Notes: generated by a model from the sequence alone, not told the origin. Positions 10,758-33,639 are shown, counted from the stretch's first letter. The stretch: DNA of 64,000 bases from an uncultured Thermoplasmata archaeon (GCA_963705355.1 OY970070.1:686818-750817); one strand, 5' to 3'. Numbers and translations: made by a program.

Positions 10758-13700
10758 TTGGGCCTGCTTGACACGCTCTGGAACAAGGAGAAGAAGCTTC
10801 TGGAGAGATCCAGAAAAGAGCTGGCAAGAGCCGATTCCCTCGAAAAGAGCGGCAGAACGGAGGACGCTCTTGCGGAGCTCGAGAAGACAAGGGCACTGCT
10901 GAAAGAGAACATGCTTTTCATCGGGAAGATGAGGCTGGACTTCTCGCAGGTGTTCACTCAGCTGGGCGATGGCTACCTCGCTCACGAGAGGGCGCAGATT
11001 GCGCAGGATGCTGCGAAGAGGGCTCTCGAGCTGGATCCAAAGAACCCGCTCGCCATGGGCGTTGAAGGGCGCTCAGCGCTGAAGCTCGGCATGACCGAAC
11101 AGGCACTCGCATCGCTCAGAAATGCCGTGGCACTGGCACCTGACTCTGAGAATCTGTGGTCGGCCTTGGGTGAGGCCCAGGATGCGATAGGGGATTTTGT
11201 CGGGGCGATCGAGAGCTACAAGCGCGCTCTGGCCATCAACCCTCTTGGCATTCGTCACTTCGACAAGATACTCGCGCACACGCCCAACGATCTGGATATG
11301 ATCAAGAAGAAAGGAACCACATTGAGCAAGCTGCAGAGGTACGATGAGGCCGTCAGCACATTCCAGGCCGGAATCGACATCGAGCCCAAGGACAAGGATC
11401 TCTGGATAGGAAGGGCGGCCGCGCTCAACCTCGCGGGCAAGAGCGAGCAGGCAATCGAGGCACTCAACTCGGCCCTGAAGATAGATCCGAACGATGTGTA
11501 CTGCCTCGACAACCTCGGAAGGATCCTGCACAAGCAGGGCATGCGCGAAGAGGCCCTGACGAGTTTCACCAGAGCCTCAGAAATCGATCGAGGGAACAAG
11601 GTTGTCTGGAACGAGCTCGGGGTCGTGCAAGAGGAGCTCGACCTGCACGATAAGGCGCTCGAATCTTTCGACCAGGCGCTGAGGATTGATCCGAACGATA
11701 TCAACGTTCTGAGCAATAAGAAGAAGACCCTGCTGAAGGTCGCGCGCTACGCAGAGCTCATAGGGGTCTGTGACAAGATACTTCTGATCAGCCCGCATGA
11801 TCACGAATCTCTGCTGGACAAGGCTAAGGCCCTGTACGAATTGAAGAGATACGACGAGGCGCTGACCTTCATCGACGCAACGCTCAACCTGGCGCCAAGG
11901 CTGAAGGAGGCGATGAACCTCAAGAAGGAGTGTCTGATTCGGCTGGAAAGGCACGGCGATGTGATTGCGTGGTGCACCAAGATTCTCGAGGGCGACCCCG
12001 ACGACTATGCTGCGATGCACGACAAAGGTGTCGCACAGCTGAAGTCCGACCGACCGCAGGAAGCCATAAAGACTTTCGAGAAGGCATTGAAGATAGCTCC
12101 CGACCCGCTGCCGATGCTCGAGAGCCTGAAGGACGCCTACAAAAGGCTGCAGAAAGACGGTCAGGTCGTACAGACCTGCGACCGGATAATCGCCATCGAC
12201 GCGAACAACAAGACCGCGCACCTCGACAAGGCCGTCGCGTTGGACAGAGCTGACCAGTTCGACGAGAGCCAGGCGGCGTACAGGCTGGCGCTCAAGTACG
12301 ATCCTAAGAACCCGGAGATCTTCTTCAACATGGCCGCTCTGTTCCTCAGGTCCGGCAAGCCCAAGGAGGCTGTGGACTACTCCAAACAGGGGATTCAGAT
12401 CGCGCCGACAAACCACGCGTTGTGGAAGATCAATGGCGACGCGAGTCTCAATTCCAAGGACTACGAGGCAGCAGTCGCAGCCTACTCGAAGGCTGTCGAG
12501 CTCGATCCGAAAGATCAGGCGAGCTTCGCGAAGCTCGGCCGGTCGTTCATAGAACTCAAGCGGTTCGAACAGGGTCTGATGGCGTACGAACATGCGCTAC
12601 AGCTTGACGCGAAAGACGCCGAAGTGTGGTTCCAGAGGGCTGAGGCACTCGAATGGCTCGACAGAGACCAGGATGCGCTCTCTTCGGTTCAAGAGGCCAT
12701 GAGGCTCAAAGCCACGACGCCAGAGTACAGAGTGAAGGAAGGCATGCTCCTCAGGAACCTTGGCAAGCCAGAGGACGCTCTGAGGGCATACGACGAGGCT
12801 CTCAGGCTGTCCCCGAGAAACGTGGCCGTGCTGAACTCGAAGAAGGATCTGTTGAAATCTCTGAAGAGGAACGATGATGTAATAGCCGTCTGCAACGAGA
12901 TACTTCAGTTGGCCCCCAAGGACCGAGATGCCCTGATAGACAAGGGCAGCGCGGCGCTCTTTCAGAAGCGGCCCAACGAGGCTCTAGTGTGCTTCAACAA
13001 GGCTCTCGAGCACGATGCGGACAACCTCGACACACTGGAGCTCAAGAAGATGGCGCTCATCTCCCTCGACGACTCGGAGAGTGTCGTGGCGGTGACCGAT
13101 CACATTCTGCGCCTGAGCCCGAAGAACAAGAATGCATTGGCGGACAGGGCGAGCGCGCTCGAGAAGCTAGGGAGAGCCGACGAGGCCATCAGGAGCTACG
13201 AGACCGCACTGACACTCGACCCGAAAGATATCTTCCTCTGGAACAGGAAGGGGCTTCTGCTTCTAGGGGCAGGAAACCCCGCGCAGGCGGCGGAGGCGTT
13301 CGATTACGCAATCAAGCTAGACTCCAACCAACCGTTCGTCCTGAACAATAGGGGAAAAGCGTATCTCGAGCTCCGAAGGTTCGAGGAGTCTCTCGCTGAT
13401 TTCAAAAAGGCCATAAAGATCCTGCCGAATGTGGCGGAGTTCCACACAAACGAGGGCAGGGCACTTGCGAGCCTCGGCAGATTCGACGACAGCATTGGGT
13501 CGTTCAACGAGGCACGCAGACAGGCGCCCAAAGACTCATCCACATTCAAGTACATGGGCATGGCCCTCCTCAAATTGAACAGGGTGTCGGAAGCACTCGG
13601 GGCGTTCGACGAGGCGATCAAGCTAGGCTCCAACGACCAGGATATGTGGAAGAGCAGAGCGAAAGGCTTCGAGGCGATGGGAGACAAGGAGGAAGCTGTG

Positions 13701-15215
13701 AGATCCTACATGAAGGCGCTCGAGATCGACCCCGAGGACCAAGCAGCTTGGTACAGGCTCGGCCTGCTGCACCTGGAGATCGGCAGGTTCTCGGACGCGA
13801 ACGCATGCTTCGACAAAGCGCTGGACCTCGACAGCGCCAACCCCAAGATATGGATGAGCAAAGGCTTCGCGATGGAGAAGCAGAACCTCTACGAGGAAGC
13901 GGTGAGTTCCTACGACAGGGCGATCGGGCTCGACTCCAACGACAAGGAGGCGTGGAAGAGCAAGGGGCAGGTGCTGCTCGCGCTCGGACGCGCGGAACCA
14001 GCGCTGCGGTGCTTCGACCACGCGCTCAGCATCGACCCCTACTTCGAGGCTGCCTCAGAGGGCAGGAAGCAGGCGGAGGACGATATCCGAAAGAACAAGA
14101 TCGAGGACTACTCCAGGGCGGTGCTCGAGTTCGAGTACGCCCACGGCCGCCCGGTGACCAAGGAGGAAGCATTCAAAGTGTGTGGGATTCCCTATGCATT
14201 CCTTGGAGACGTGCTGGAATTCCTGAGCGGAAAGGAGAACGTCGGCCTCACGGGCATGGTCAGGGAGGAGTCCGACAGATACGAGAGGATGTCACGAGAG
14301 GTCCTCGTGAACACGATGGAGAAGCGAGACCTCGCGGCACATGGTCTCCGACTCTGCGACATCACAGTCAACTTCCCAGATCTCAGAATCTCGAGCGCGA
14401 AGAAGATACTCAGCTACATACAGGCGGTCGAGGAGCATGAGTTCAGCACGAAGTCATCGGACCCCCAGACTGAGGCACTGCTGCGACAGGCGCTCGAACT
14501 GCCCAACGACCAGAAGAACGTCCTGGGACTGATCAGGAACCTCGGCATCGGGGCATACTGGGCCCGACAAATTGTGACGATCCTTCACACCTTCCAGGGC
14601 GCTGGATTCGCGACGCCGGCAGTGGCGCTGAAGTCCATCGTCAGCGAGAGCTACGGGCACTACTCCCCTTACGACGAGCGTGCAGCTTGGCGGGAGAGGC
14701 CTTCGCCTGAAGAGCCTTCATTTCCGTCCGAGAGGAGAGGACGCCGTCGAGAAGCGCCCCGGCCCGAAGAGATGCATAAAGAGGAGCGAGAGCCCAGAGC
14801 GGCCGAAAGGTACAGTCATGAGGTCGAAGCCCTCAGACAAAAACCGCGGCCGAAGCCTCAGAGGGAGCGGCCAGGAAGGGAGACCGAGCGCGCTCCTCAG
14901 GAAATTCCTTCTGATTTGGTCGGGCGCAGATGCCTGTTCCACGGAGGCATCGCGGTCGCGAGATGCGCGAAATGCAAGGCGGTGCTCTGCAGGGAATGCA
15001 TCAGAGGGTCTGACAGATGCCCCAGATGCAACACCCCGCTGAGGGCGGTGGAAGAGACCGAAGAAGGGAGACGGCCGAGAGAGGTCGAAGCCGAGGAAGA
15101 GCCTGAAGAGGAGGCCGAGCAGGAGCCGGAGGAAAGGCCTCGGAAGAGACCCAGGGAAAGGCAGAAACCTCCCCGAAAGAAGACCGAAGAGGATGAGGAT
15201 CTGAATCGCCTTTGA
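10758..15215 (+). CDS. very large tetratricopeptide-repeat (TPR) protein with C-terminal Cys-rich zinc ribbon and charged tail
   Basis: 1485 aa; dozens of 34-residue TPR-like units over about 1,100 aa; C-terminal CLFHGG...CAKCKAVLCRECIRGSDRCPRCN followed by E/K/R/P-rich tail. First in-frame start is TTG; first ATG is 51 codons downstream. Confidence 0.7.
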   Translation: MGLLDTLWNKEKKLLERSRKELARADSLEKSGRTEDALAELEKTRALLKENMLFIGKMRLDFSQVFTQLGDGYLAHERAQIAQDAAKRALELDPKNPLAMGVEGRSALKLGMTEQALASLRNAVALAPDSENLWSALGEAQDAIGDFVGAIESYKRALAINPLGIRHFDKILAHTPNDLDMIKKKGTTLSKLQRYDEAVSTFQAGIDIEPKDKDLWIGRAAALNLAGKSEQAIEALNSALKIDPNDVYCLDNLGRILHKQGMREEALTSFTRASEIDRGNKVVWNELGVVQEELDLHDKALESFDQALRIDPNDINVLSNKKKTLLKVARYAELIGVCDKILLISPHDHESLLDKAKALYELKRYDEALTFIDATLNLAPRLKEAMNLKKECLIRLERHGDVIAWCTKILEGDPDDYAAMHDKGVAQLKSDRPQEAIKTFEKALKIAPDPLPMLESLKDAYKRLQKDGQVVQTCDRIIAIDANNKTAHLDKAVALDRADQFDESQAAYRLALKYDPKNPEIFFNMAALFLRSGKPKEAVDYSKQGIQIAPTNHALWKINGDASLNSKDYEAAVAAYSKAVELDPKDQASFAKLGRSFIELKRFEQGLMAYEHALQLDAKDAEVWFQRAEALEWLDRDQDALSSVQEAMRLKATTPEYRVKEGMLLRNLGKPEDALRAYDEALRLSPRNVAVLNSKKDLLKSLKRNDDVIAVCNEILQLAPKDRDALIDKGSAALFQKRPNEALVCFNKALEHDADNLDTLELKKMALISLDDSESVVAVTDHILRLSPKNKNALADRASALEKLGRADEAIRSYETALTLDPKDIFLWNRKGLLLLGAGNPAQAAEAFDYAIKLDSNQPFVLNNRGKAYLELRRFEESLADFKKAIKILPNVAEFHTNEGRALASLGRFDDSIGSFNEARRQAPKDSSTFKYMGMALLKLNRVSEALGAFDEAIKLGSNDQDMWKSRAKGFEAMGDKEEAVRSYMKALEIDPEDQAAWYRLGLLHLEIGRFSDANACFDKALDLDSANPKIWMSKGFAMEKQNLYEEAVSSYDRAIGLDSNDKEAWKSKGQVLLALGRAEPALRCFDHALSIDPYFEAASEGRKQAEDDIRKNKIEDYSRAVLEFEYAHGRPVTKEEAFKVCGIPYAFLGDVLEFLSGKENVGLTGMVREESDRYERMSREVLVNTMEKRDLAAHGLRLCDITVNFPDLRISSAKKILSYIQAVEEHEFSTKSSDPQTEALLRQALELPNDQKNVLGLIRNLGIGAYWARQIVTILHTFQGAGFATPAVALKSIVSESYGHYSPYDERAAWRERPSPEEPSFPSERRGRRREAPRPEEMHKEEREPRAAERYSHEVEALRQKPRPKPQRERPGRETERAPQEIPSDLVGRRCLFHGGIAVARCAKCKAVLCRECIRGSDRCPRCNTPLRAVEETEEGRRPREVEAEEEPEEEAEQEPEERPRKRPRERQKPPRKKTEEDEDLNRL

Positions 15216-16423: not shown

Positions 16424-16912
16424 TTGCGAGTTTGTCACAGATGCAGAAAAGAAACAGAAGAGATGTTCTGTCCGAACTGTCATGTCTTGACCTATCCCCC
16501 CAGGGCAGCGGGCACGACGCCAGCATCACTCGCAGGTGAATCCTTTGATTGCACCATTTGGCAGGGTCCGAACCGGTCCAGAGGCATTGAGGTCCCGCAA
16601 AGTGAACGCGACAAGTACTTCTCCAAGAATCACGACATGGTCGTTCTACACATCGAAGGTAAGAGGACCGTCGCGACCTTGGGACCTCCGTTTTGGAAGA
16701 AACCAGCGGTGATCAAGAAGGCGGTCGACGACACCGGAAGGGACCAGCTGATCAAGTTCTTCGAGAAGCACCACCTGCTTCCCCCTCAGCAATCCATGAA
16801 AGAGAAGGGCATAGTGGACACCGTGATCTTCGAAGTGATCACTCCGATGGAGGAGTTCAAGATCGGGGTGACAGAAAGACATGAAGAGGAAGGCAGGCGC
16901 GAGCGGGACTAG
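16424..16912 (+). CDS. hypothetical protein with N-terminal CxxC-x9-CxxC zinc ribbon
   Basis: N-terminus CHRCRKETEEMFCPNC; TTG start in the ORF track, start uncertain. Confidence 0.35.
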   Translation: MRVCHRCRKETEEMFCPNCHVLTYPPRAAGTTPASLAGESFDCTIWQGPNRSRGIEVPQSERDKYFSKNHDMVVLHIEGKRTVATLGPPFWKKPAVIKKAVDDTGRDQLIKFFEKHHLLPPQQSMKEKGIVDTVIFEVITPMEEFKIGVTERHEEEGRRERD

Positions 16913-18108
16913 ATAAGCTTCAATTCTCTGCCAATCGTCTCGAATGCGCCCAGGGCTTCGTCCAAATCACTTTTGGTCAAGGCCGCGTTCATGATGGTCC
17001 TGATCCTCGCTTTGTCCTTGGCCACCATCGGGAACACGATCGGGAGAGCGAAGACTCCGAGCTCGAACAGCCGCGAGCTGAACATCTTCGCGGCTCCGCT
17101 TTCGCCGATCATGACGGGGATGATGGGCGTCTGACTCTTGCCCGTGTCGAATCCAAGATCGCGGACGCCTTTCCTGAAGTAATCAGTGTTTGCCCAGAGA
17201 TTCCTAACATGCTTCGGCTCTGTTTCCAGAACATCAATCGCCGCGATGCACGCGGCAGCCACTGCTGGAGGATGTGAACCGCTGAGAAGCCAAGTTCTCG
17301 ATTTGTTGTACGCGAAATCGACTAGGTCGCGGGTGCCGGAGACATGGCCGCCGACCACGCCGAAAGCTTTCGAGAAGGTGCCCATCTCGACGTGGACATC
17401 ATCCCTGTGGAGCTTGAAGTGAGACACAATGCCTCTTCCGCCCTCACCGAGCACACCCTCTCCGTGCGCGTCGTCCACATAGACCATGGCACCGTGATCA
17501 TGGGCGATTGGCGCTATCTTGTCGACAGGCGCGATGTCTCCGTCCATGCTGAAGACGCCGTCGGTGATTATCAGAACCCTTCTGTAGGCGGGGCTGTGCT
17601 CTTCGGCCTTCTCGAGAACCTTCCTCAAATCATCGACATTGCAGTGCCCGTACACTGCACGGTCTGCCCTCGACAGCCTGACGCCGTCGATGATGCTTCC
17701 GTGATTCAACTCATCGCTGACGATCAGATCGCCTGCATCTGCGAGCTGCGGAATCAGGCCAGCATTTGCAGCAAAACCCGTCTGATAGACCAGCGACGCC
17801 TCTGCATCCTTGAACTTCGCTAGGCGCCTCTCGAGCTCCATGTGCAGGTCCATGTTCCCTGCAATCGGGCGCACTGAGCCCGATCCAGCGCCGTAGGTTC
17901 TCACCGCTTCGATGGCGGCCTTCTTCAACTTCGGGTGAGTGCTCAGGCTGAGGTAGTTGTTCGAACACAGCATGAGGACCTTCCGGCCGTCCACGACGCA
18001 ACGAGGCATGCTGGGTCCTTCGAGAACTCGCAACTTCCAGTCGAGCTCGTTGCCGACCAGCTGTTGGTACTCATCTCTCAGAAACCCTACGGGATCTCTC
18101 CGAGCCAT
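16909..18108 (-). CDS. kbl: 2-amino-3-ketobutyrate CoA ligase (glycine C-acetyltransferase)
   Basis: 399-aa PLP alpha-oxoamine synthase family ORF; adjacent and co-directional with a threonine dehydrogenase-like gene. Confidence 0.8.
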   Translation of the reverse strand: MARRDPVGFLRDEYQQLVGNELDWKLRVLEGPSMPRCVVDGRKVLMLCSNNYLSLSTHPKLKKAAIEAVRTYGAGSGSVRPIAGNMDLHMELERRLAKFKDAEASLVYQTGFAANAGLIPQLADAGDLIVSDELNHGSIIDGVRLSRADRAVYGHCNVDDLRKVLEKAEEHSPAYRRVLIITDGVFSMDGDIAPVDKIAPIAHDHGAMVYVDDAHGEGVLGEGGRGIVSHFKLHRDDVHVEMGTFSKAFGVVGGHVSGTRDLVDFAYNKSRTWLLSGSHPPAVAAACIAAIDVLETEPKHVRNLWANTDYFRKGVRDLGFDTGKSQTPIIPVMIGESGAAKMFSSRLFELGVFALPIVFPMVAKDKARIRTIMNAALTKSDLDEALGAFETIGRELKLI

Positions 18109-18112
18109 CTCC

Positions 18113-19180
18113 TCACCACTCGGGTTTGAGCGAGACTTTCGCCGCCTGCTTCGTGCGAATGAGTTCCATGCCTTTCTCGATGTCCCTTATCGGTAAGGTG
18201 TGGGTGACGATCGACGAGAGCTTTGACCTAAACGCTGGGTTCTTCAGAACCTTGAACATCGTGTCCCATGTCTGGAACATCTTCCTGCCTGTGATTCCGA
18301 AGACCGTCGCAGACTTGAACGTTATCGCGTTGTTGACATCAATAGCCACAGGGTCGTTGTAGAGCCCCAGGATTGACACCCTCCCGCCGGGCGTCAGCAT
18401 CTCGAACACCTGTTTCAGGGCGGGTGCCGCGCCAGACATCTCGAGGCACACATCAGCTCCGTTGCCGTCGGTGAGCTCTTTGACTTCCCTGACGAGCGCG
18501 CCGTTGCCCATGGCGGCGTCGAGCACGACATCTGAGCCCATCCTTTTCGCCAGGTCGGATCTCACCTTCTCGCTCGCGAGCTCCGTCGCAATGATCTGCT
18601 TCGCCCCGACGGTTTTCAGGAGAGCGATGGCCATGAGCCCGATAGGCCCGCAGCCGGCAACGACAACGTTCTTCCCCTTGATGTCGTGGAAGCAGTCGTT
18701 CGGGAAGACCGTGAAAGTGGCGTTGCCGAGCGGCTCCAGGAGCGACCCCAGCTTCGGATCCAATCCCTTCGGAAGCTTCATCGCGTTCCTCTCGGGCAGC
18801 TTGACGTACTCTGCGAACACGCCGTCCGTGTCAACTCCCAGGATCTTCATGTTCCGGCAGATGTGCATCCTGCCGGTCTTGCACTGGTAGCAGGTTCCGT
18901 CGACTATGTGAGTCTCAGCGGAAACCATGTCACCGACATCGACCCTCCTGACGCCCTTGCCGACCTCAACGACCTCGCCGCAGAACTCGTGTCCGAACAC
19001 GATAGGCAGGGTCTTGACGCGCTTCTGCGCCCAGTGGTTCCAGTCCCAGATGTGGACGTCGGTGCCGCAAATCGACGTCATCTTCGCCTTGACGAGGACC
19101 TCGCCCTTGCCTATCACAGGCAACGGCACATCCTCGACCTGCGCTCCCGGCTCCCTTTCTCTCTTGACGACCGCGTGCAT
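18113..19180 (-). CDS. tdh: L-threonine 3-dehydrogenase (zinc-dependent)
   Basis: Zinc-ADH family motifs (CGTDVH, GHEFCGEV, GCGPIG Rossmann). Start set at internal ATG (MHAVVKRE), not the ORF-track start. Confidence 0.75.
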   Translation of the reverse strand: MHAVVKREREPGAQVEDVPLPVIGKGEVLVKAKMTSICGTDVHIWDWNHWAQKRVKTLPIVFGHEFCGEVVEVGKGVRRVDVGDMVSAETHIVDGTCYQCKTGRMHICRNMKILGVDTDGVFAEYVKLPERNAMKLPKGLDPKLGSLLEPLGNATFTVFPNDCFHDIKGKNVVVAGCGPIGLMAIALLKTVGAKQIIATELASEKVRSDLAKRMGSDVVLDAAMGNGALVREVKELTDGNGADVCLEMSGAAPALKQVFEMLTPGGRVSILGLYNDPVAIDVNNAITFKSATVFGITGRKMFQTWDTMFKVLKNPAFRSKLSSIVTHTLPIRDIEKGMELIRTKQAAKVSLKPEW

Positions 19181-19290
19181 CCGAAGGTCACAGCTCCTAT
19201 TGTCCAAGAGTGGACATTGGTACTGCCTTTTAAGCGATTTGGGACTACTAAGAAGTTCGACGTATGTCCCTGGTGGAAGCAGGTGCAAGC

Positions 19291-21511: not shown

Positions 21512-22216
21512 ATGGAACCGACGACATACACTATCTCGGCGAGAAGAATGGTAGTTGTCTTCGGTACCCTTGGCTTTCGTCCAAAGTCCCTGGTTCCAAC
21601 AATAAGATCCACGCCAAATGTGGACAAGGTCGTGTTCTACTGCGGTGCGGACAAGTCCGACACAGAGGCGACGAGGAGGGTCGGGGAGGCGAGGAAGGCT
21701 GTCCTGGAGTATTGCCGAAGCATGAAGCTTGCAGTCGAGGCGGTTGACTTGGACGATCCATTCGACTTCAAGAACATCGCAGTGAGGATCAGGGGCGACA
21801 TTCGCAAGCACAAGCGCGAGGGCAGAGAGATTGCGATTTTCAACATAGCCGGGGGAACGAAACCCACCTCTGCTGCGGCCTTGCTGGTTTGCATCCTGGA
21901 GGGAATACCGACGGTGTACGTCCACGACCTGACCTACGAAGAGATCCCGCTGCCGCTGCTGAAGATGGAATATAGCCAGGTGCTATCGGGCGAGGAGCGA
22001 GAGATACTCAAGACGTTGTCGAAAAACAAGTCGAGGAAGCTAACAGAGGTCGAGCTGGCATCGCTGATTGGAAAGCACAAGGCAACCGTCAACCACCACC
22101 TCCGCAACCTCGTCGCCAAAGGCGCGGTGAGGCTGGAGAGACACCCGGACGACTCGAGGAAGAAGGTCGTGGTCGTCGAGGAGTCGACGGAGCTCCTGCT
22201 TGGTGATGACGAGTGA
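21512..22216 (+). CDS. Csa3/CARF-like regulator with C-terminal winged HTH (paralog A)
   Basis: N-terminal strand VVVFGTLGF, glycine-rich NIAGGTKP about 100 aa later, C-terminal wHTH-like segment; AT-rich promoter-like stretch upstream. Confidence 0.5.
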   Translation: MEPTTYTISARRMVVVFGTLGFRPKSLVPTIRSTPNVDKVVFYCGADKSDTEATRRVGEARKAVLEYCRSMKLAVEAVDLDDPFDFKNIAVRIRGDIRKHKREGREIAIFNIAGGTKPTSAAALLVCILEGIPTVYVHDLTYEEIPLPLLKMEYSQVLSGEEREILKTLSKNKSRKLTEVELASLIGKHKATVNHHLRNLVAKGAVRLERHPDDSRKKVVVVEESTELLLGDDE

Positions 22217-22863
22217 GAATCCTTGTTTCCACCTTCGGTCCTGAGGACGCTGAAAGGGTCCTGCAGGCCATGAGGCAGCTTCCATATGACAAGCTGGTCC
22301 TCATCGGCCAGGAAGGCATCCAAGGATGCGAAGCGTTTCAGAGGATCAAGAACCTCGAAGATATGGCTGGCCATGCGGTCGACGCCGAGACTGTTGATGA
22401 AGATGATTTCATGGCGCTCGTCGACGGAGTATCGGAGATACTCCTGAGACATGCAAACGGCGGAAGGAATCCCGTGACACTGAACATCAGCGGCGGATCG
22501 AAGTTGCTGGGTGATGCCGCGCTGCTTGCGGCATTCCGCTTCGGATTGGAGGCGTTCCATTTCGACGGCAGGATCACCAAACTGCCGGTTCTCCAAGGGG
22601 CGACCGCGAAGGACAGATTCACGACTTCTCAGACGAGACTGATCAACGTGATTGGGGAAAAGAATCTGGTCTTGGACGATCTGATCGTCAAGATGAAACC
22701 GGCGAGCAAGCAATCAACCGAGAGAGTGATTCGAGAACTTAGGAAGCAGAACCTGCTCAGACCCGAGGTGCGCAGAAGGAAGGTCCGCTTGTCACTGTCA
22801 CCCTCGGGGTTGGAGGTCTTCCGCGCTATCCGCCTGACCGCAACGAACAAGAGACCAGATTAG
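22213..22863 (+). CDS. Csa3/CARF-like regulator with C-terminal winged HTH (paralog B)
   Basis: Same architecture as paralog A (ILVSTFGPE, NISGGSKL, basic C-terminal HTH-like region); GTG start overlapping the upstream stop (GTGA). Confidence 0.5.
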   Translation: MRILVSTFGPEDAERVLQAMRQLPYDKLVLIGQEGIQGCEAFQRIKNLEDMAGHAVDAETVDEDDFMALVDGVSEILLRHANGGRNPVTLNISGGSKLLGDAALLAAFRFGLEAFHFDGRITKLPVLQGATAKDRFTTSQTRLINVIGEKNLVLDDLIVKMKPASKQSTERVIRELRKQNLLRPEVRRRKVRLSLSPSGLEVFRAIRLTATNKRPD

Positions 22864-23657: not shown

Positions 23658-23763
23658 TGGCGGGCTTGAAGGGATTCGAACCCTTGGCCAACCGGTGTCT
23701 CCTTCCGTTCCTTTCAGAACCGAAGTAAGAGCCGGTTGCTCTACCTAGCTGAGCTACAAGCCC
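23658..23763 (-). tRNA. tRNA-Lys (anticodon CTT) with approx. 29-nt anticodon-loop intron and genomically encoded CCA
   Basis: Minus-strand fold: acceptor GGGCTTG/CAAGCCC, D-arm GCTC-AGCTAGGTA-GAGC, anticodon stem ACCGG/CCGGT split by insert after position 37, T-arm AAGGG-TTCGAAT-CCCTT, discriminator G then CCA. Confidence 0.75.
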
Positions 23764-23926: not shown

Positions 23927-25423
23927 TCAGCTTTTGCCGAACTCGTTCACTATCGCACTGAGCCCCTTAGACTTGTCAGCGTCCAGCGGGACCGGCTTGT
24001 GCTCCTTCAAGATCTGCTCGATGCGCGCGTTCGCCGCCTCGAGCGAGTCCATGCCGCCTTTGTTCACGGCCTGCTCGAAGGTCTCCGTCCTCCACATTAG
24101 CTGCATGTAGTAGTCGCGCATGTGCGAGAGCGTGTGCTTCTGACCCAGATAGTTCCCGCCTATGCCGACCTTCTTGATCAGGTCCACTGCTAGCGTCTCA
24201 TCGCTGACCTCGAACCCGCTCATGGTCTTCAGGGTCATACCAGCTATCTCATGGTCGAACAGCAGCTGCTCGTACGACAGAAGTGTGGAGCCGTCCGGAA
24301 CCCCCAGGCCATTGATGACCTCTCCGCCGACAAGGATGCTCGCGGCGGTGGAGAGCTGGTTCTCTATCGATGCCTGCACGCCAGGGACCTTCGCGCTCGA
24401 GCCCATGCCTCCTGTGGAGTTCGGTATCTTGCAGAACTTGGCCATCTCGACCGCGGCAGCGCAAAGGATGGTGCTCTCGGGCGAGCCGCCTATGTACGCG
24501 CCCGACATCGGGTCCATGGCGGAAAGGACGGAGCCGTACATGACGGGCGAACCGGGTTCGTGAGCTTGCATCGCGCATGCGAGCGCGAGCGTCTCCGCGT
24601 GATTGACCACGAGGTCGCCAGCGATCGTTGCGGGACCGTTCATGCCCGCCTGGGCCATGCCGGTGATGTGCACTGGAACATGGTTCTCCGCCCAGACCAT
24701 CGCCGCCTCAGTGGTCGGACCTTCGAGCACGAGCGGCGAGACTGTGCAGACCATGGCGGAGATGTAGTGTCTATTCCTCAGCTCCTCGATGTCGCCCATG
24801 ATCTCGGCGGCCATCTTGACCTGGGCCCTGGCCTCGTCCGGGTTCGAAGTCGACTCGGTCAGAATGTGCTTCTGAGTGTTCTCCATCGCGACCCTAACGC
24901 CCTCGATCACGTGCATCTTTTCCGGCACATCGTGCGCGACAACCATCGGCTCATAGATGCTTACGTACGGAAGCCAATCGGATATGATCGCCGTCCTGCG
25001 AATGTCCTCCAGGACAGACCTTCTTTTGGTCCGCGTCTTGGCCTCCCACACAGCGACTCCGCAACCGTCGGTTGTGAAGTAGCTGTGGTTGCCGTCAAGG
25101 GGGAGATCGAACTCCTTGGTTCGACCCGCAAGGGTGTACGTCTTTGGGATCTTCTTCGAGAGCGAGTTCACGACACTTATAGGGAACTTGACGACCTCGG
25201 TCTTCTCGTCCACGATGGCCCCCGAGCCCTTCAGGGCGCTCCTGGCCGTCTTGCTGTGGACCTTGAGGCCGACGTCCTCCATCACCTCGAGGGTGGCCTC
25301 GTGGATCATCTTCTTGTCCGTCGTGCTCATCAGCTCGCACTTTGTCTTGACCTTGAAATTGTCTGCGAAGTTCTGGTTTGCCATTTTGTTCACTTCCTCC
25401 TGACACGCAGTCAGATATTGCAT
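23927..25423 (-). CDS. MttB-superfamily (trimethylamine/quaternary-amine:corrinoid) methyltransferase, no in-frame amber codon
   Basis: About 490-aa uninterrupted ORF of MttB-family length and layout (N-terminal IHEATLEVMEDVGLKV); probable ATG start at MANQ. Confidence 0.7.
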   Translation of the reverse strand: MQYLTACQEEVNKMANQNFADNFKVKTKCELMSTTDKKMIHEATLEVMEDVGLKVHSKTARSALKGSGAIVDEKTEVVKFPISVVNSLSKKIPKTYTLAGRTKEFDLPLDGNHSYFTTDGCGVAVWEAKTRTKRRSVLEDIRRTAIISDWLPYVSIYEPMVVAHDVPEKMHVIEGVRVAMENTQKHILTESTSNPDEARAQVKMAAEIMGDIEELRNRHYISAMVCTVSPLVLEGPTTEAAMVWAENHVPVHITGMAQAGMNGPATIAGDLVVNHAETLALACAMQAHEPGSPVMYGSVLSAMDPMSGAYIGGSPESTILCAAAVEMAKFCKIPNSTGGMGSSAKVPGVQASIENQLSTAASILVGGEVINGLGVPDGSTLLSYEQLLFDHEIAGMTLKTMSGFEVSDETLAVDLIKKVGIGGNYLGQKHTLSHMRDYYMQLMWRTETFEQAVNKGGMDSLEAANARIEQILKEHKPVPLDADKSKGLSAIVNEFGKS

Positions 25424-25486
25424 CTCGTCGGGATTAACGATTGGCTAGGGTTTGGCCCGATCAGCTGCGGGTGGTTATAGAAAGAC

Positions 25487-26953
25487 TCAGAAGCTACGTT
25501 TCTCCAGGGCATCAGCGCCGATGCTCTTCGAGTACTCCCGAATGATGCTGTCGATGCTCTTTCTGACCTCGGTCTCGAGAGGTTCGGGATGATGCGAACC
25601 AAGAAGCTCGACCATGCGCTCCTTGGCGCGCTTCTTCGCGTCCTTGGAGCCGGCCTCCATCCACCTTGTCCTGCTGGCCCTGTCCGAGATCCTGGGCGCC
25701 AAATGCTCCTTCCTGAAACGCAGCAAGGTGTCCTTCTGCTTCAAGTAGCTGCCCATCGGGCCTACCTTGTTGATGAGTTCGACTGAAAGTGTCTGATCGT
25801 TCACTTCGATGCCCTCGGAGAACCTGAGGGCATTGGCTGCGATCTCCTCGTCAATTACAAGCTGAACCGGCGAGAACGTGCTGAAAGCTTCAGTCGCGCC
25901 GATGAACAGGTCCGAGAAGTCGGCGCCCGCAGCGGCGGCTGCAAGAGCTGAGAAGGCCTTCTCATATGCGGCTTGCTCATCCACCGCCTTTGAGTCGCTC
26001 TGAACCCCCATGTTGCTGGGCAGGCCGTAGTACTTGGCGAGTTGCACCGCGCCCACGCCAATGAGAGAGAACTCGGGGGCACCAGTGGCGGACATCCCGC
26101 TCCTCATGTCGAGCGGGCAGGATACTGAGCCGTAGACGATCTTCGGGGATCTAGTGACCGTGCTCGCAATCACGATGGAACTGAGCACCTCGGCGTTTTG
26201 CTGCACGAGGGTCCCCGCGATGGAGGCTGGAGCGGTGCCGCCAGCAAGGGCCATGACTGTGACGAACACTGGCATATCCATTCGGCAATAGCCGAGCAGG
26301 GCCTCCAACATCGTATAATCGTGCCCAAGAGGGCTGATGGGGTCGACGTACCCGCAGAAAAGGGGCTTCTTGCGCAGGATCTCCCGGTCCCCATAGATGG
26401 CCTCTCCCAGCCTCATGGCCATCTCGACATCGTCCTTGCCCGTGCTCCCGCCGTATGTGCACTTTGACGAGTTGATCAGGCCAGCAGCCATCACCACGAT
26501 GCTCCTCTCGTAATCGCCGATGTCGCTGGCGTATGTCGGGACATAAGCGATCTGGACATTCTCAAGCGCATCCAAAAGCCTGCAGCAGAGAATGCCGTCG
26601 GCCAATTTAGGAACCCGCGCCTGGTCGGTTTCCGGATCGATGTAGTGAACGCACTCTGCGCCTGGCCCAATCTTAGTCCTGCCGTCGACGGCCTCGATCG
26701 AGTTCTTCTCGCTTCTGGCGTACCACTTGAAATTCTTCTTACAGCTCTTGACGGCCTCCATCACGACCGACTCGGGCATTTTGACGATCTTGGTCTTCCG
26801 GTCGACCTTGAGGCCTTTTCTCACTAGCAGGTCCAGCGTCTCCGAGGAGTTCACGAGCACTCCAGTCTTGCTGAGGACCTCGAGGGAAGCGCCATGGATG
26901 GCGTCCAATCCATCCTTCTCTATCACCTTCAGCATCTGTTTCCCAGAGACCAT
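25487..26953 (-). CDS. MttB-superfamily methyltransferase paralog, no in-frame amber codon
   Basis: 488-aa uninterrupted ORF with the same family layout (N-terminal IHGASLEVLSKTGVLV); tandem to the first paralog. Confidence 0.7.
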   Translation of the reverse strand: MVSGKQMLKVIEKDGLDAIHGASLEVLSKTGVLVNSSETLDLLVRKGLKVDRKTKIVKMPESVVMEAVKSCKKNFKWYARSEKNSIEAVDGRTKIGPGAECVHYIDPETDQARVPKLADGILCCRLLDALENVQIAYVPTYASDIGDYERSIVVMAAGLINSSKCTYGGSTGKDDVEMAMRLGEAIYGDREILRKKPLFCGYVDPISPLGHDYTMLEALLGYCRMDMPVFVTVMALAGGTAPASIAGTLVQQNAEVLSSIVIASTVTRSPKIVYGSVSCPLDMRSGMSATGAPEFSLIGVGAVQLAKYYGLPSNMGVQSDSKAVDEQAAYEKAFSALAAAAAGADFSDLFIGATEAFSTFSPVQLVIDEEIAANALRFSEGIEVNDQTLSVELINKVGPMGSYLKQKDTLLRFRKEHLAPRISDRASRTRWMEAGSKDAKKRAKERMVELLGSHHPEPLETEVRKSIDSIIREYSKSIGADALEKRSF

Positions 26954-27187: not shown

Positions 27188-27961
27188 ATGCACGACGCTT
27201 TTATCGCAGTTCTGAGCAGTGGAAGCATTGGTAACTCGTTCCTCGTGATGTCTGATGGCCGCGGCATCCTCATCGATGCCGGGATCTCGTGCAAAGAACT
27301 CGAGCGCCGAATGTCGTCATTCGGTGTAGAGGCGTCGCAAATCGAGGCCTTGGTGCTGACACACGAACACACTGATCACGTGCGATCAGCGCGGCGATTC
27401 GCCGAAGAGAACGGCGTCCAGGTTTTCGGGACAAGAGGGACTCTTGCGCTCACACAGTTGGATGGAACGAAGACCGTGACCATCGCCTCTGCAAAGGACT
27501 TCGCAGTAGGTGATTTGCATTTCAGACCTTTCAAAGTCAGACATCTTGCCGCTGAACCCGTAGCATTTGCCATCACCATTGGCACGAAGAAGGTGAGCAT
27601 CGCATCCGATCTTGGATGCGTAACGCCCAATGCCGTTAGCGAGATGGCCGACTCCGACCTTCTGTTGATTGAGGCGAACTATGACGAGGGGATGCTGCTT
27701 GCAGGAGACTACCCAGACTTTCTCAAGCGAGCCATCAAGGGCGACCATGGTCACCTCTCAAACGATGACGCAGGCGTCCTGTCCATGAGGACCGCGACAG
27801 ACAAGACGCGCAAAATCGTGCTCGTCCATCTCAGCAAGGACAACAACACTCCCGAGATAGCCCTCGATACGGTCGAGCGGAGTCTGAAGCGGGCAAAGTT
27901 GAATTCCGAGCTCGAAGTCTCAGAGCACGGGCTTCCGAGCGGGCCTTTCGCTCTAGGCTGA
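27188..27961 (+). CDS. metallo-beta-lactamase fold hydrolase
   Basis: HxHxDH motif (LTHEHTDH) and N-terminal LSSGSIGNSFLV typical of MBL-fold proteins. Start set at internal ATG. Confidence 0.6.
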   Translation: MHDAFIAVLSSGSIGNSFLVMSDGRGILIDAGISCKELERRMSSFGVEASQIEALVLTHEHTDHVRSARRFAEENGVQVFGTRGTLALTQLDGTKTVTIASAKDFAVGDLHFRPFKVRHLAAEPVAFAITIGTKKVSIASDLGCVTPNAVSEMADSDLLLIEANYDEGMLLAGDYPDFLKRAIKGDHGHLSNDDAGVLSMRTATDKTRKIVLVHLSKDNNTPEIALDTVERSLKRAKLNSELEVSEHGLPSGPFALG

Positions 27962-28621: not shown

Positions 28622-28740
28622 GCATCATTAATGTATTTGATGCTTGTGCGTTGCAGATTCTGCAGCAAATCAGGTGGCAAAGGCACTGGATAGCATCGAT
28701 GCCAACTTCCAAGTGCTACACGTAGTCAGAGAAGCATAAT

Positions 28741-29979
28741 ATGCTAGCCATCGTCAAGGACGAGATGCTGGTGAAGGGAGTCGCCTTCCGTCTGGACTCG
28801 GGCCTTCCGGCGGATGCGAAGTTCCTGCTCGAAGACTTCAGATTGGCAGTCAACAACGCGATCAGGGCAGGTCTTCAAGCGCGGGTGACTTCGAGAAATG
28901 CCCTGGTTAGGATCGCGTACAAGGACTTTCGCCACCAACATCCAAGGATGTATTCCCAACATCTGGTATCGGCCTTCGAAGTGGCCGGGAGCGTGCTCAA
29001 GAACTATCGCAGGCGGGTTCGAAAAGGGGGCAGCTGCAGAATCCCCTTCGTCAAGCGCCTGATTATGAAAGCAGAGAATCAGGCGTACAAGCTCGATCGG
29101 AAGTCCGGAGTCATCGACCTTCCGATCAGGGCTGGCTGTCATGTCAAGTTGAAGCTCGTCGTCAGCAAGTATCATCGGAAGTATCTGGACGATTTGGCCC
29201 TTTCTCTCGGTTCCCTGACAATTCTCCCCGACCGAGTCATAGTCGCATTCAGGAAGGATGCTCCCAGACAGTATACACCCGCATCAGTGTTGTCGCTCGA
29301 CACCAACGAGCGCAGTCTGGACGGCGTGCTCATCGAGGGTGATGCCGCCAAGGCTGTCAAAGCGGAGTTCCCAGAAGTCGCAATCATCCAGCAGCAGCAT
29401 CACGATAGGCGCAAGAGGTTTCAGAAGAAGAAAGCGCATGACAGGCGTACTTCGAGAAACCTTTGCAGGAGAGAAGGGGCGAGGGAGCACCACCGGATAG
29501 ACTACAGGATGCACCAAGTGGCAGATGCTGTCATTTCGTTCGCTGAGAGACAAAAGTCCGCAGTCGTTCTCGAGGATCTGAAAGGCATCAAATCGAAAAG
29601 GAGCAAGGAACTGAATCGGCGACTCAGCATGTGGCCCAGGCGAAAGCTTCACCAGATCATCGAGTACAAGGCACAATGGAAGGGCATCCCAGTAGTCAAG
29701 GTCGATCCAAGATACAGCAGCAGAACGTGCCCGATATGTGGGAGGATACAGGATTCCCGAATGGGCGCGGAGTTCAAATGTGATTGTGGCTGGCACCTCG
29801 ACAGGCACATCAACGCCAGCATCAACCTGCTGCAGACAGCCATCTCGAAGGGGATGGCAGGGGGTTTACGGTTCAACCCCGGCGCGTTCCAGCATGACGT
29901 GATGATGATCCCATACGAGCCAGCGATGGCCGCACGGTCGGAGCCGAATGGAACGAGTGGCATTTGCGAAGTGACCTGA
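28741..29979 (+). CDS. tnpB: TnpB/OrfB (IS200/IS605-family, IS1341-like) RuvC-type RNA-guided nuclease homolog
   Basis: RuvC-I-like SLDTNE, C-terminal zinc finger CPICG...CDCG and DRHINASINLL motif; no tnpA nearby. Confidence 0.8.
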   Translation: MLAIVKDEMLVKGVAFRLDSGLPADAKFLLEDFRLAVNNAIRAGLQARVTSRNALVRIAYKDFRHQHPRMYSQHLVSAFEVAGSVLKNYRRRVRKGGSCRIPFVKRLIMKAENQAYKLDRKSGVIDLPIRAGCHVKLKLVVSKYHRKYLDDLALSLGSLTILPDRVIVAFRKDAPRQYTPASVLSLDTNERSLDGVLIEGDAAKAVKAEFPEVAIIQQQHHDRRKRFQKKKAHDRRTSRNLCRREGAREHHRIDYRMHQVADAVISFAERQKSAVVLEDLKGIKSKRSKELNRRLSMWPRRKLHQIIEYKAQWKGIPVVKVDPRYSSRTCPICGRIQDSRMGAEFKCDCGWHLDRHINASINLLQTAISKGMAGGLRFNPGAFQHDVMMIPYEPAMAARSEPNGTSGICEVT

Positions 29980-30017
29980 TGGTCACCACCCGACAATGCA
30001 ACAGAACCTGCGTTGCA
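28741..30017 (+). mobile_element. solo IS200/IS605-type tnpB element including 3' hairpin region (boundaries approximate)
   Basis: tnpB ORF plus hairpins at 29971-29986 (GTGACC-tgat-GGTCAC across the stop codon) and 29997-30017 (TGCAAC/GTTGCA stem). Confidence 0.4.
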
Positions 30018-30844: not shown

Positions 30845-32176
30845 ATGGCACTCTCCGAATGTTCTCTGGAGATGCTTCGATACCTCAATCTGAAATCTGT
30901 GGACGATCTCTTCGTTGACATTCCGGAGGAGGTCAGGGTTGACGGACTGAATTTGCCCGACGGACTTTCGGAGATCGAGCTGAGGCGAGAGCTCGAGGCG
31001 CTGTTCTCGTCCAACAAACCGGCATCATCTCAGCCGTCGTTCTTGGGCGCTGGAGTCTATCATCATTTCATTCCGGCAGCGGTCAGGACCATCATTTCCC
31101 GTTCGGAGTTCCTGACGTCTTACACGCCATATCAACCCGAGATAAGCCAGGGCATGCTGCAGGCGCTCTTTGAGTACCAGTCATTCATGGCTGAACTCAC
31201 GGGCATGGACGTCGTAAACTCGAGCATGTACGATGCCTCGACCGCGCTGGGCGAGGCAGTCCTAATGAGCCGCAGGATCTCCGGTGGAGACACATTCCTG
31301 ATCAGCAGAGCTGTCAGCCCTGAGAAGAAGCAGGTGGCCGCGACATATGCAAGAGGCGCGAACATAAGGATCGATGAAGTCGCGTACGACAGAGTGACGG
31401 GGCTCGTGGATCTGACAGATCTCAAATCGAAGATGAAGGACAACATCCTGGGATTCTACTTCGAGACTCCGAATTTCTTCGGCCCAATCGAGACCGAGGC
31501 TGACGAGATCAGGGCAGTTGTCGGCAACAAGACCCTCGTGACCGGCGTCAATCCGATGTCGCTGGCTCTCCTCAGACCGCCAGGTGAGATGGGCGCAGAC
31601 ATCGTTGTGGGAGATGCGCAGGTTTTCGGCAACCCGATGAACCTTGGCGGGCCGATGATTGGCGTCTTCGGATGCAAGGAAGAGCATGTCCGGAAGATGC
31701 CCGGAAGACTGATAGGCATGACCAATGACATTGAGGGGAAGAGAGCCTACTGCATGACCCTTCAGACAAGGGAGCAGCATATCCGAAGGAGCAAGGCGAC
31801 CTCAAACATATGCACGAATGAGGCCCTCCTTGCTATAGCTGCGGCGTCATACTTGGCTTTGGTCGGCCGCAACGGACTGAGGGAAATCGCAGCGAAGAAC
31901 GTGGAGAACATGCATTCTCTTTCGGCCCGGATGAACCAGCTCGATGGCCTTGGGTCACCGCACTTCAAGTCCGCGCACTTCAACGAGTTCGTCGTAGGAT
32001 CTGACATCGACTCCGAGAAGATCCACAAAGGACTTCTGTCCAAAGGAGTACACGGAGGGCTTGTCCTCGACAAGATGTTCCCTGAGCTGAAGCACGCAGC
32101 CCTATACGCGACCACCGAGATGCACACCAGACAGGATCACGACAAGCTCATCAAGGCGTTGGAGGCGGTCCTTTGA
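30845..32176 (+). CDS. gcvPA: glycine dehydrogenase (decarboxylating) subunit 1
   Basis: 443-aa ORF with P-protein N-terminal-subunit layout; 4-nt overlap with subunit 2. Confidence 0.9.
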   Translation: MALSECSLEMLRYLNLKSVDDLFVDIPEEVRVDGLNLPDGLSEIELRRELEALFSSNKPASSQPSFLGAGVYHHFIPAAVRTIISRSEFLTSYTPYQPEISQGMLQALFEYQSFMAELTGMDVVNSSMYDASTALGEAVLMSRRISGGDTFLISRAVSPEKKQVAATYARGANIRIDEVAYDRVTGLVDLTDLKSKMKDNILGFYFETPNFFGPIETEADEIRAVVGNKTLVTGVNPMSLALLRPPGEMGADIVVGDAQVFGNPMNLGGPMIGVFGCKEEHVRKMPGRLIGMTNDIEGKRAYCMTLQTREQHIRRSKATSNICTNEALLAIAAASYLALVGRNGLREIAAKNVENMHSLSARMNQLDGLGSPHFKSAHFNEFVVGSDIDSEKIHKGLLSKGVHGGLVLDKMFPELKHAALYATTEMHTRQDHDKLIKALEAVL

Positions 32177-33639
32177 GGTATCATCAGGCCGTCCACGAAG
32201 TCCCGACTTTGTTCGAGAACTGCGAGAAGCCCTCCGAGCAAACGAACCTCGACCAAACTGTGCGTGGCCTCCTTCCGGAGAAGATCCTGAGGAAGGACCT
32301 CAACATTCCCGACCTCCCGGAGAGGGATGTCGTCAAGCACTTCATCAACCTGTCACAGATGAACTTCGGCGTCGACAATGGCCTCTATCCGCTGGGCTCA
32401 TGCACAATGAAGTACAACCCGAAGGTTTGTGACGAGGTGGCCTCCTGGAGTTCGGTCACGGACCTGCACCCGTTGCAGGATCCGTCGACGATACAGGGCG
32501 CACTGAAGCTAATGCACGAGCTCGAGAGGATGCTGTGCGAGATCGGCGGCGTCGATGCCGTGACTCTGCAGCCAGCTGCGGGCGCACACGGCGAGTTCAC
32601 GGGGATCCAGCTCGTAAAGGCATATCACGAGGCCAACGGGGAGAAGAGGAACGAGGTGATTCTGCCAGACACCGCTCACGGGACGAATCCTGCGAGCGCG
32701 GCAATGGTTGGCTACGATGTCCTCGATCTGCCCTCCAAGGAAGGCTGCGTCGATGTTGAGGCATTGAAGTCGGCGATATCGAAGGACACTGCTGCTTTCA
32801 TGCTGACCAACCCGAACACACTGGGTCTCTTCGAAAAGAACGTCAAGGAGATCGCGGGGATTCTGCACGATGCTGGCGCGTTGCTCTACTACGACGGAGC
32901 GAACCTGAACGCCATCATGGGCAAGACGTCTCCCGGGAAGATGGACTTCGACATCGTTCACTTCAACCTCCACAAGACTTTCGCGACCCCACATGGCGGA
33001 GGCGGCCCAGGGGCAGGGCCAGTCGGCGTGAAGAAGATGCTTGAGGAGTTTCTTCCAGTGCCTCGTATCGTTGAAAGCAATGGGACTTATTCCCTGGACT
33101 ACGAAAAGCCCAAAAGCATCGGGAAGGTCAGGGCGTTCTTCGGCAACTATGCGGTTCTCGTCAGGGCGTACGCGTACATCAGGATGCACGGCGGCAAAGG
33201 CCTGGCGCAAATCTCGGAGAACGCGGTCCTGAACTCGAATTACCTCAAGGAGAAGCTGAAATCCGACTTTGAGCTGCCGTATGGAGACCTGAGAAAGCAC
33301 GAGTTCGTCCTGAGCGGAAGACCGTTGAAGAAGAACGGCCTCAGGACGCTGGATTTCGCCAAAAGGCTGCTTGACTATGGCTTCCATGCCCCGACGATAT
33401 ACTTCCCGTTGATAGTCGACGAGGCAATAATGATCGAGCCGACGGAGACTGAATCACGAGAATCCCTCGACGCGTTCGTGGACGCGTGCAAGGCCATCCT
33501 GAAGGAAGACCCGGAGCTGCTCCGTTCCGCGCCTCACAATACAGCTAGGAGGAGACTCGACGAGGCAAAGGCTGCGAGGGATATGATTTTCAGCTGGCGC
33601 GCTTACGAGAGAAAAATGCGGATGGCTAATCGCGCTTGA
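32173..33639 (+). CDS. gcvPB: glycine dehydrogenase (decarboxylating) subunit 2
   Basis: 488-aa PLP-dependent ORF with P-protein C-terminal-subunit layout. Confidence 0.9.
   Translation: MRYHQAVHEVPTLFENCEKPSEQTNLDQTVRGLLPEKILRKDLNIPDLPERDVVKHFINLSQMNFGVDNGLYPLGSCTMKYNPKVCDEVASWSSVTDLHPLQDPSTIQGALKLMHELERMLCEIGGVDAVTLQPAAGAHGEFTGIQLVKAYHEANGEKRNEVILPDTAHGTNPASAAMVGYDVLDLPSKEGCVDVEALKSAISKDTAAFMLTNPNTLGLFEKNVKEIAGILHDAGALLYYDGANLNAIMGKTSPGKMDFDIVHFNLHKTFATPHGGGGPGAGPVGVKKMLEEFLPVPRIVESNGTYSLDYEKPKSIGKVRAFFGNYAVLVRAYAYIRMHGGKGLAQISENAVLNSNYLKEKLKSDFELPYGDLRKHEFVLSGRPLKKNGLRTLDFAKRLLDYGFHAPTIYFPLIVDEAIMIEPTETESRESLDAFVDACKAILKEDPELLRSAPHNTARRRLDEAKAARDMIFSWRAYERKMRMANRA

Follow-up and report, generated by a model that had tools for sequence, protein, structure and literature searches.

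Two adjacent pyrrolysine-free MttB-superfamily proteins of a Thermoplasmata archaeon as putative corrinoid-dependent methyltransferases of methylated amines

Introduction

Which methylated compounds are used by two neighboring genes that resemble the trimethylamine methyltransferase gene mttB and encode no pyrrolysine? The question is raised by a 64,000-nucleotide stretch of DNA from an uncultured Thermoplasmata archaeon (GCA_963705355.1 OY970070.1:686818-750817), here called the window, in which two such genes, designated A and B, lie in tandem. Our analysis favors, at a level somewhat short of confident, the view that A and B are independent first methyltransferases (MT1s) of corrinoid-dependent methyl transfer acting on methylated amines, probably neither glycine betaine nor the known acidic quaternary amines, with an MttC-like partner encoded elsewhere and a RACo-type activase available.

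Six members of the MttB superfamily have known substrates. All six methylate a corrinoid protein, and none demethylates a tertiary amine without pyrrolysine. MttB of Methanosarcina barkeri (PDB 7XCL-7XCN) carries a UAG-encoded pyrrolysine, Pyl334, and its other key residues are the Gly110-Thr111 cis peptide, Met249 and Tyr364; the Y364F substitution lowers Vmax about 28-fold. MtgB of Desulfitobacterium hafniense (PDB 2QNE/9YCE), whose likely cognate corrinoid protein is reported to be DSY3155, contains no pyrrolysine and binds glycine betaine through Y97 and F356 (cation-pi) and R312 and H348 (carboxylate) (PMC13080624). The R312L variant of MtgB is inactive, and R312 is reported to be conserved in MtcB, MtpB, MtyB and MthB of Eubacterium limosum, non-pyrrolysine MT1s that act on carnitine, proline betaine, gamma-butyrobetaine and phosphocholine, all of them acidic quaternary amines. 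In E. limosum, the MT1 methylates a corrinoid protein, a second methyltransferase (MT2) then methylates tetrahydrofolate, and RamQ reactivates the corrinoid protein. We adopted this MT1 scheme as the working model for A and B.

Genes of this kind have been recorded before in the lineage concerned. Zinke et al. 2020/21 and Rasmussen et al. 2024 reported MttB-superfamily open reading frames (ORFs) in the Thermoplasmata orders UBA10834 and RBG-16-68-12. According to the surveys of order UBA10834, these ORFs lack pyrrolysine and are distinct from methanogen MttB, and the order has some MttC/MtbC proteins and no MT2, mcr or pyl genes; the role of the ORFs is given there as unclear or as possible support of methylotrophic acetogenesis. 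Carbon monoxide dehydrogenase/acetyl-CoA synthase (CODH/ACS) has been reported for the order. For the genus COMBO-56-21, published analyses list mttB, mttC, mtmB, 'mtgB', the tetrahydrofolate (H4F) branch, acsA-E and the reductive glycine pathway (rGlyP), and propose methylotrophic acetogenesis. An initial annotation of the window had steered the pair toward glycine betaine.

Results

Genes A and B encode full-length MttB-superfamily proteins without pyrrolysine

The pair and its spacer occupy the following positions, counted from the first nucleotide of the window.

25487-26953, minus strand: mttB-like gene B, 488 aa, upstream member of the pair, an uninterrupted ORF
25385-25486, minus strand: B-A spacer, 102 nt
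23927-25384, minus strand: mttB-like gene A, 485 aa, downstream member of the pair

Both products are full-length members of the MttB superfamily (PF06253 / COG5598) without pyrrolysine. The Pfam MTTB profile PF06253 (cut-off 25 bits) matches A with 277 bits (E 2e-82, profile positions 27-492 of 500) and B with 278.5 bits (E 8e-83, positions 29-495 of 500), in line with the family assignment made in the initial annotation. On TIGR02369, the profile of pyrrolysine-type trimethylamine methyltransferases, A and B score 412 and 418 bits, respectively, both below the cut-off of 525 bits. The two proteins are only 31% identical to each other, and we therefore regard them as old paralogs rather than the outcome of a recent duplication.

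Neither ORF has an internal stop. The earlier statements that both are uninterrupted and free of amber codons were thus correct, and the concern that the genes might be read-through artefacts falls away since neither contains any in-frame TAG. The start previously used for A, however, probably lies 13 codons too far upstream. The longer ORF at this gene (23927-25423, 498 aa) begins at an alternative ATG at 25423 that no Shine-Dalgarno sequence precedes; an AGGAGG Shine-Dalgarno sequence stands ahead of the ATG at 25384, and orthologs of A mostly have 483 aa, which is 96-97% of the 498-aa ORF. On the basis of the ortholog lengths and the position of AGGAGG, we place the start at 25384, 13 codons inside the longer ORF. 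TAG terminates 12 of the 56 long ORFs in the window. No pylTSBCD genes were found in the window, where the only tRNAs detected are tRNA-Pro(CGG) and an intron-containing tRNA-Lys(CUU).

Residues at the pyrrolysine position and in the substrate pocket

Active-site residues were mapped with a HMMER alignment and with a MAFFT alignment of 39 sequences, which included 18 orthologs each of A and B. For B, we chose the register given by a G-x-G motif common to all five sequences. The correspondences are listed below; apart from A S323, B N314 and B D348, every tabulated residue is invariant in 18 of 18 orthologs.

MttB G110, MtgB Gly: A G107; B G96
MttB T111, MtgB Y97: A C108; B P97
MttB M249, MtgB Leu: A M243; B M234
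MttB Y329, MtgB R312: A S323 (17 of 18 orthologs); B N314 (Asn in 13 orthologs, Asp in 5)
MttB Pyl334, MtgB Leu: A G328; B Q318
MttB Y364, MtgB H348 region: A N358; B D348-L349 (D348: Asp in 10 orthologs, Glu in 8)
MttB Gly, MtgB F356: A S366; B F357

At the pyrrolysine position, a check suggested by the initial annotation revealed a conserved sense codon in each gene: GGC (Gly328) in A and CAG (Gln318) in B. Of 59 motif matches in the fetched loci, 58 have CAG as the Gln318 codon. A single transition separates CAG from UAG, a curiosity that proves nothing.

Equivalents of MttB G110 and M249 are present in both A and B, within the GxG motifs G107-C108-G109 of A and G96-P97-G98 of B in the case of G110. 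Unlike MttB, however, A has Asn358 as the counterpart of Tyr364, and B has Asp348 in the MAFFT alignment or Leu349 in the HMMER alignment. The counterpart of MtgB H348 falls in a gap after N358 in A and is L349 in B. The betaine-binding tetrad of MtgB is therefore kept at none of four positions in A and at one of four in B, where only the phenylalanine equivalent to F356 is present. A and B lack both pyrrolysine and an arginine equivalent to R312, which sets them apart from MttB on the one hand and from MtgB and the E. limosum enzymes on the other. The invariant pocket signatures are Gly-Cys-Gly with Gly328 and Asn358 in A, and Gly-Pro-Gly with Gln318 and Phe357 in B.

Predicted fold and placement in the superfamily

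AlphaFold2 models of A and B (predicted TM-score 0.80 and 0.78, respectively) show the TIM barrel, extended at both termini, that is known from the solved structures of MttB and MtgB. Foldseek aligned the models to 9yce, 2qne, 7xcl and 4yyc over about 480 columns with TM-scores of 0.74-0.80. MttB ranked first for the A model (TM-score 0.79), and the B model gave 0.74-0.76 to MtgB and MttB.

Both proteins are similar in length to MtgB and align with it end to end, at 27-30% identity; the pairwise identities among A, B, MtgB and MttB are 27-33%. The best PDB sequence matches of B are MtgB (9yce, E 6e-70, 239 bits) and MttB (7xcm, E 6e-68, 233 bits). A is slightly closer to MttB (7xcl, 231 bits) than to MtgB (191 bits, E 2e-55). 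For placement, MtgB, MttB and 4yyc served as references, and MtcB, MtpB, MtyB and MthB were compared by published description only. A neighbor-joining tree places A, B and a further clade, which we call C-type, on deep branches of their own, with a loose grouping of B and MtgB and with A nearest neither reference. Genes A and B belong to different deep subfamilies of the MttB superfamily.

Conservation of the B-A pair and its spacer

Of the 24 B-centered genome loci that could be judged, 11 have the B-to-A tandem and 13 contain B by itself, one of the latter being the syntenic site of RBG_19FT_COMBO_56_21. In the 80 A-centered metagenome loci, B lies upstream of A in at least 28; A occurs singly in 22, and in 8 loci, with 9 A-type genes between them, it comes after a different MttB paralog. 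De-duplication left 41 distinct B-to-A pairs in which the identity to A is 60-100%, and every named source of these contigs is an uncultured Thermoplasmata archaeon. That each type also occurs singly argues against an obligate A-B heteromer.

The spacer measures 68-107 nt across the 41 distinct pairs, with a median of 90. A [G/C]AAACCC motif is conserved in it, in most cases 1-3 nt downstream of a short, GC-rich hairpin of lineage-variable sequence. The spacer also has a CCUGA-N-UCAGG hairpin whose 3' arm overlaps the Shine-Dalgarno sequence of A. In minimum-energy folds of the last 45 nt, the Shine-Dalgarno sequence is at least partly paired in 24 of the 41 spacers. The first hairpin was not significant against shuffled sequences (median z about 0), the spacer matched no Rfam family, and RNAalifold on a MAFFT alignment yielded no consensus structure. 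The spacer could be an internal promoter with elements like BRE and TATA, or a translational control element.

Related uncultured archaea contain larger arrays of the family. Eleven consecutive MttB-superfamily paralogs lie on the same strand in locus L073 (OMKS01000596.1, 3778-20385), and nine in locus L091 (8454-21431); each array comprises one or two A-type genes and many C-type genes with about 28% identity to A and B. These arrays represent an unusually large local expansion of the family.

Corrinoid proteins beside A-type genes and the RACo-type activase

In three loci of distant relatives (L008, identical to L096; L097; L081), an A-type ortholog with about 58% identity adjoins a 215-aa B12-binding protein (PF02607+PF02310) and a non-pyrrolysine MtmB homolog. 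The corrinoid protein contains a DIHEIG stretch, which we take as the DxHxxG cobalamin-binding motif, and JGI labels this MttC-like protein a 'trimethylamine corrinoid protein'. Its family is large (7661 homologs), abundant in Thermoplasmata and highly conserved there; many of the 120 homologs listed are named corrinoid proteins of Thermoplasmata. Proteins identical to A and B are encoded on a contig of 1,975,906 bp, probably a closed genome, and none of these 120 listed homologs comes from it.

The operon, at 8411-13652 of L008, comprises a C-type MttB, an A-type MttB, the MttC-like corrinoid protein encoded at 11618-12265 and a 460-aa MtmB-family protein. The last is a single uninterrupted product that apparently contains no pyrrolysine codon. 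Among non-pyrrolysine MtmB proteins, function is known only for MtqB, whose substrates are tetramethylammonium and choline (PMC13044021).

The window itself contains part of an activase gene, about 36 kb from the pair, as originally annotated:

62855-64000, plus strand: RACo-type ATP-dependent reductive activase, 5' part, 382 codons, running off the window

The gene is real; in a strain that is 99% identical, the complete protein has 630 aa with a Fer2 match (PF00111) and the domains RACo_linker, RACo_middle and RACo_C_ter (PF17650, PF17651, PF14574). The gene is flanked by ribosomal protein genes on one side and by two saccharopine-dehydrogenase-like genes, an MFS transporter and PEP synthase on the other, and no corrinoid protein was found among its downstream neighbors in the 99%-identical strain. 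RACo is a candidate reactivator for the corrinoid partner of the MttB proteins and is not specific to the pair. It is not assignable to the pair because the order is reported to have CODH/ACS, whose corrinoid protein also needs such an activase.

Host lineage and genomic neighborhood

The host belongs to Thermoplasmata order UBA10834 (= Ca. Gimiplasmatales) and is a sediment archaeon. Proteins encoded in the window include Gins23, a GPN-loop GTPase, aIF2-gamma, aIF5B and an RNase J-like nuclease. B orthologs with 60-99% identity occur in Thermoplasmata metagenome-assembled genomes (MAGs), e.g. RBG_19FT_COMBO_56_21, RBG_13_57_23 and UBA9653, which the literature assigns to order UBA10834, and every named source of B orthologs at 57-85% identity is Thermoplasmata or Euryarchaeota. 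At the DNA level, the window is 95% identical to MAG JBASRQ01, its species-level match, 99% to a 129-kb JGI contig and 100% to a Logan contig.

The pair is embedded in the gene order gcvPAB - toprim - Gins23 - MBL hydrolase - B - A - (tRNA) - GPN GTPase - regulators - HAD - RNase J-like - tdh - kbl. The members closest to the present question are as follows.

16909-18108: kbl
18113-19288: tdh (tdh-kbl, about 5 kb from the pair)
27188-27961, plus strand: MBL-fold hydrolase, divergent from B across a 234-bp gap
30845-33639: gcvPA/gcvPB (about 4 kb from the pair)

Synteny of the block from gcvPAB to kbl extends to relatives with as little as about 70% protein identity and holds where A is missing (locus L010). 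When the neighbors in 117 loci were clustered (all ORFs), the recurrent clusters were almost solely members of the window's housekeeping block, and no transporter or substrate-preparing enzyme emerged as a recurrent partner. B-type genes outside the block adjoin an ABC-2 exporter, a class-III aminotransferase, DUF2284, an MscS channel or a cobalt ECF transporter. The initial annotation had correctly located gcvP and tdh-kbl in the window and had taken them as a sign of glycine-centered metabolism. This interpretation is not supported: their proximity reflects the inherited order of a conserved housekeeping block and carries no functional signal.

The MBL-fold hydrolase has a weak Anti-Pycsar Apyc1-like Pfam match in the JGI annotation. 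Its divergent arrangement with B is kept in every syntenic relative, including those without A, and it does not stand beside B-type genes outside the block. We considered it as a substrate-preparing partner (cf. mthK-mthB) and rejected this idea, for which there is no independent support, the adjacency being confined to the synteny block.

Several other features of the window were recorded. Directly downstream of gene A lies the tRNA-Lys(CUU) gene (23661-23763, minus strand; Rfam RF00005, 60 bits), which has the anticodon loop CUCUUA and an insert of about 30 nt after position 37 (intron) and was missed by ARAGORN; a TTTATAAA box lies about 35 nt upstream of it. Between Gins23 and toprim/gcvP, a TnpB-only IS200/IS605-type element occupies 28651-30008 (TnpB ORF 28741-29979, plus strand; NF040570, 105 bits). 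The 99%-identical JGI strain has this 1.36-kb segment, but neither the 95%-identical MAG contig L011 nor L003 does, a pattern suggestive of recent insertion. At 21512-22863 (plus strand) lie two overlapping genes, one for a CARF/Csa3-like regulator that matches PF09651 Cas_APE2256 and, weakly, MarR, and one for an HFX_2341_N protein. Relatives keep both genes in the synteny block; among the window ORFs scanned, neither a CRISPR array nor cas genes were found. Finally, 10758-15215 (plus strand) encodes a 1485-aa protein that is almost all TPR repeats and matches numerous TPR families of Pfam at overlapping positions.

Discussion

We identified a conserved tandem of two distantly related MttB-superfamily genes and propose that their products function as independent MT1s on methylated amines. 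The proposal builds on direct observations, namely the family, the fold, the absence of pyrrolysine, the pocket residues, the conservation of the pair, the corrinoid adjacency of A-type genes in distant relatives and the presence of RACo; from these we infer the catalytic steps, the partner proteins in the host genome and the substrates. In a presumably non-methanogenic archaeon of order UBA10834, each TIM-barrel enzyme would bind a methylated amine in its central cavity, from which an N-methyl group would be offered to the cobamide Co(I) of a small corrinoid protein, similar to MttC/MtbC and encoded elsewhere in the genome of about 2 Mb. The resulting methyl-Co(III) protein would be demethylated by a second methyltransferase, which would pass the methyl group to the tetrahydrofolate branch of the Wood-Ljungdahl or reductive-glycine pathways, and the RACo-type activase would restore Co(I) after accidental oxidation. 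A compound that is in itself a good methyl donor, for example a quaternary amine or one activated in another way, is the probable substrate, since pyrrolysine is absent. Because the carboxylate-binding Arg/His and the aromatic pair are missing, the substrates are probably neither glycine betaine nor the known acidic quaternary amines. A and B probably take different substrates, given their 31% identity and different pocket residues.

Several observations weigh against this proposal. As the initial annotation had noted, neither a corrinoid protein nor a second methyltransferase is encoded next to the pair, in which it differs from mttB with its neighboring mttC. No B12-binding, pterin-binding/MtrH or MtaA/URO-D domain was found in the Pfam-scanned window ORFs of at least 90 aa, nor among the genes that JGI calls on two stretches, 99% identical, that span part of the window, and a corrinoid-protein hidden Markov model built from 120 Thermoplasmata homologs matched no window ORF of at least 60 aa, even at E<=10. 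No corrinoid protein, MT2 or cobamide gene was found in the window or in the approximately 11 kb past its 3' end, and none of 26 B-type genome loci has a corrinoid gene within 10 kb. Published surveys report no MT2 for the order as a whole. The RACo activase may be devoted to the corrinoid iron-sulfur protein of CODH/ACS alone. The residue mapping rests on alignments at about 30% identity, in which MAFFT and HMMER differ by two columns at the GxG motif of B, and the active-site loops of both AlphaFold2 models have per-residue confidence (pLDDT) below 50.

Glycine betaine, to which the initial annotation had pointed, would make A and/or B MtgB-like demethylases, perhaps acting stepwise to glycine, which gcv and tdh-kbl would then process. 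Such a role could appeal to the standing of MtgB as the top PDB match of B and its loose neighbor in the tree, to the F356 equivalent in B, to the glycine genes 4 and 5 kb away, to a KEGG-style 'mtgB' label in related MAGs and to the rGlyP reported in the genus. However, B is nearly as close to pyrrolysine-type MttB and only about 30% identical to MtgB, R312, without which MtgB is inactive, corresponds to Ser in A and to Asn/Asp in B across orthologs, and three of the four tetrad residues are missing even in B. Together with the unrelated neighbors of B-type genes elsewhere and the retention of gcvP and tdh-kbl, among unrelated housekeeping genes, where A is missing, this makes betaine demethylation very unlikely. 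Pyrrolysine-independent demethylation of tri-, di- or monomethylamine, especially by A, through another route of amine activation is hardly more plausible. It would accord with the greater closeness of A to M. barkeri MttB in sequence and structure, with the G110 and M249 equivalents of A, with the name that JGI gives to the corrinoid protein adjoining A-type relatives, and with published MAG papers, which interpret these mttB genes as trimethylamine use. Against this, A has Gly and Asn in place of Pyl334 and Tyr364, both proteins fall below the TIGR02369 cut-off, and 0 of 6 members with an identified substrate demethylate a tertiary amine without pyrrolysine.

Two further explanations concern the pair as a whole. 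A and B might work as one unit, either as a heteromer or in successive demethylation of one polymethylated amine: in the MttB and MtgB dimers, the C-terminal loop of each subunit completes the active site of its partner, order, strand and the spacer of about 90 nt are kept in the 41 distinct pairs, the spacer motifs suggest coupled expression, and the L008 operon joins three different MT1-type genes with one corrinoid protein. We nevertheless judge this unlikely, as B is alone in 13 of 24 genome loci, one of them the syntenic site named above, and A is alone in 22 metagenome loci and preceded by another paralog in 8. Alternatively, A and B might not be catabolic corrinoid-protein methyltransferases at all and might use free cobamide, run in the reverse, methyl-accepting direction or have an unrelated role. 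The lack of partner genes near any B-to-A pair locus, a further point against our proposal, would fit such a role, as would the housekeeping setting and the reported lack of MT2 in the order. This explanation is likewise improbable given the corrinoid proteins beside A-type orthologs in three loci, the methylation of a corrinoid protein by every superfamily member with an identified substrate, and the strong conservation of the pocket-lining residues, which argues for a specific small-molecule substrate.

Our proposal of independent MT1s therefore remains the one we prefer. A more far-reaching interpretation, to which we give a minor though appreciable chance, is that A and B are founders of two Thermoplasmata-specific MttB subfamilies whose chemistry is unlike that of the characterized members. 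In that case, a non-acidic or non-quaternary methylated compound could be demethylated by a new, pyrrolysine-free activation route, and the pair, co-expressed under its conserved structured spacer, might serve a non-methanogenic archaeal methylotrophy.

Pyrrolysine-free MttB homologs of this lineage and their missing partners are already known from the literature. The ORFs of Zinke et al. and Rasmussen et al. come from the same lineage as the pair, and B orthologs are present in RBG_19FT_COMBO_56_21, RBG_13_57_23 and UBA9653 and in two MAGs (L012 and L018, 80% and 75% identical to B) whose names bear the OBJ site labels of the Slate River study. Unlike the present analysis, the accessible parts of these two reports describe no A/B subfamily split, B-to-A tandem, pocket residues or betaine-signature mismatch. 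Relative to such published accounts, the division into two subfamilies, the B-to-A cassette with its spacer of about 90 nt, and the mismatch to the betaine signature and its arginine appear to be new.

The locus alone adds little to the MAG surveys; it offers enzymology a sound lead but nothing that specialists would find surprising. For a superfamily as large as that of MttB, only six substrates are known, and the pair, conserved across sediment and subsurface Thermoplasmata and with pocket residues unlike those of any characterized member, provides a defined target for a seventh and an eighth specificity. Methylated amines are major methane precursors in anoxic sediments, and non-methanogenic archaeal consumers would divert carbon from methane. 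The pair would thus help to test whether Ca. Gimiplasmatales are methylotrophic acetogens.

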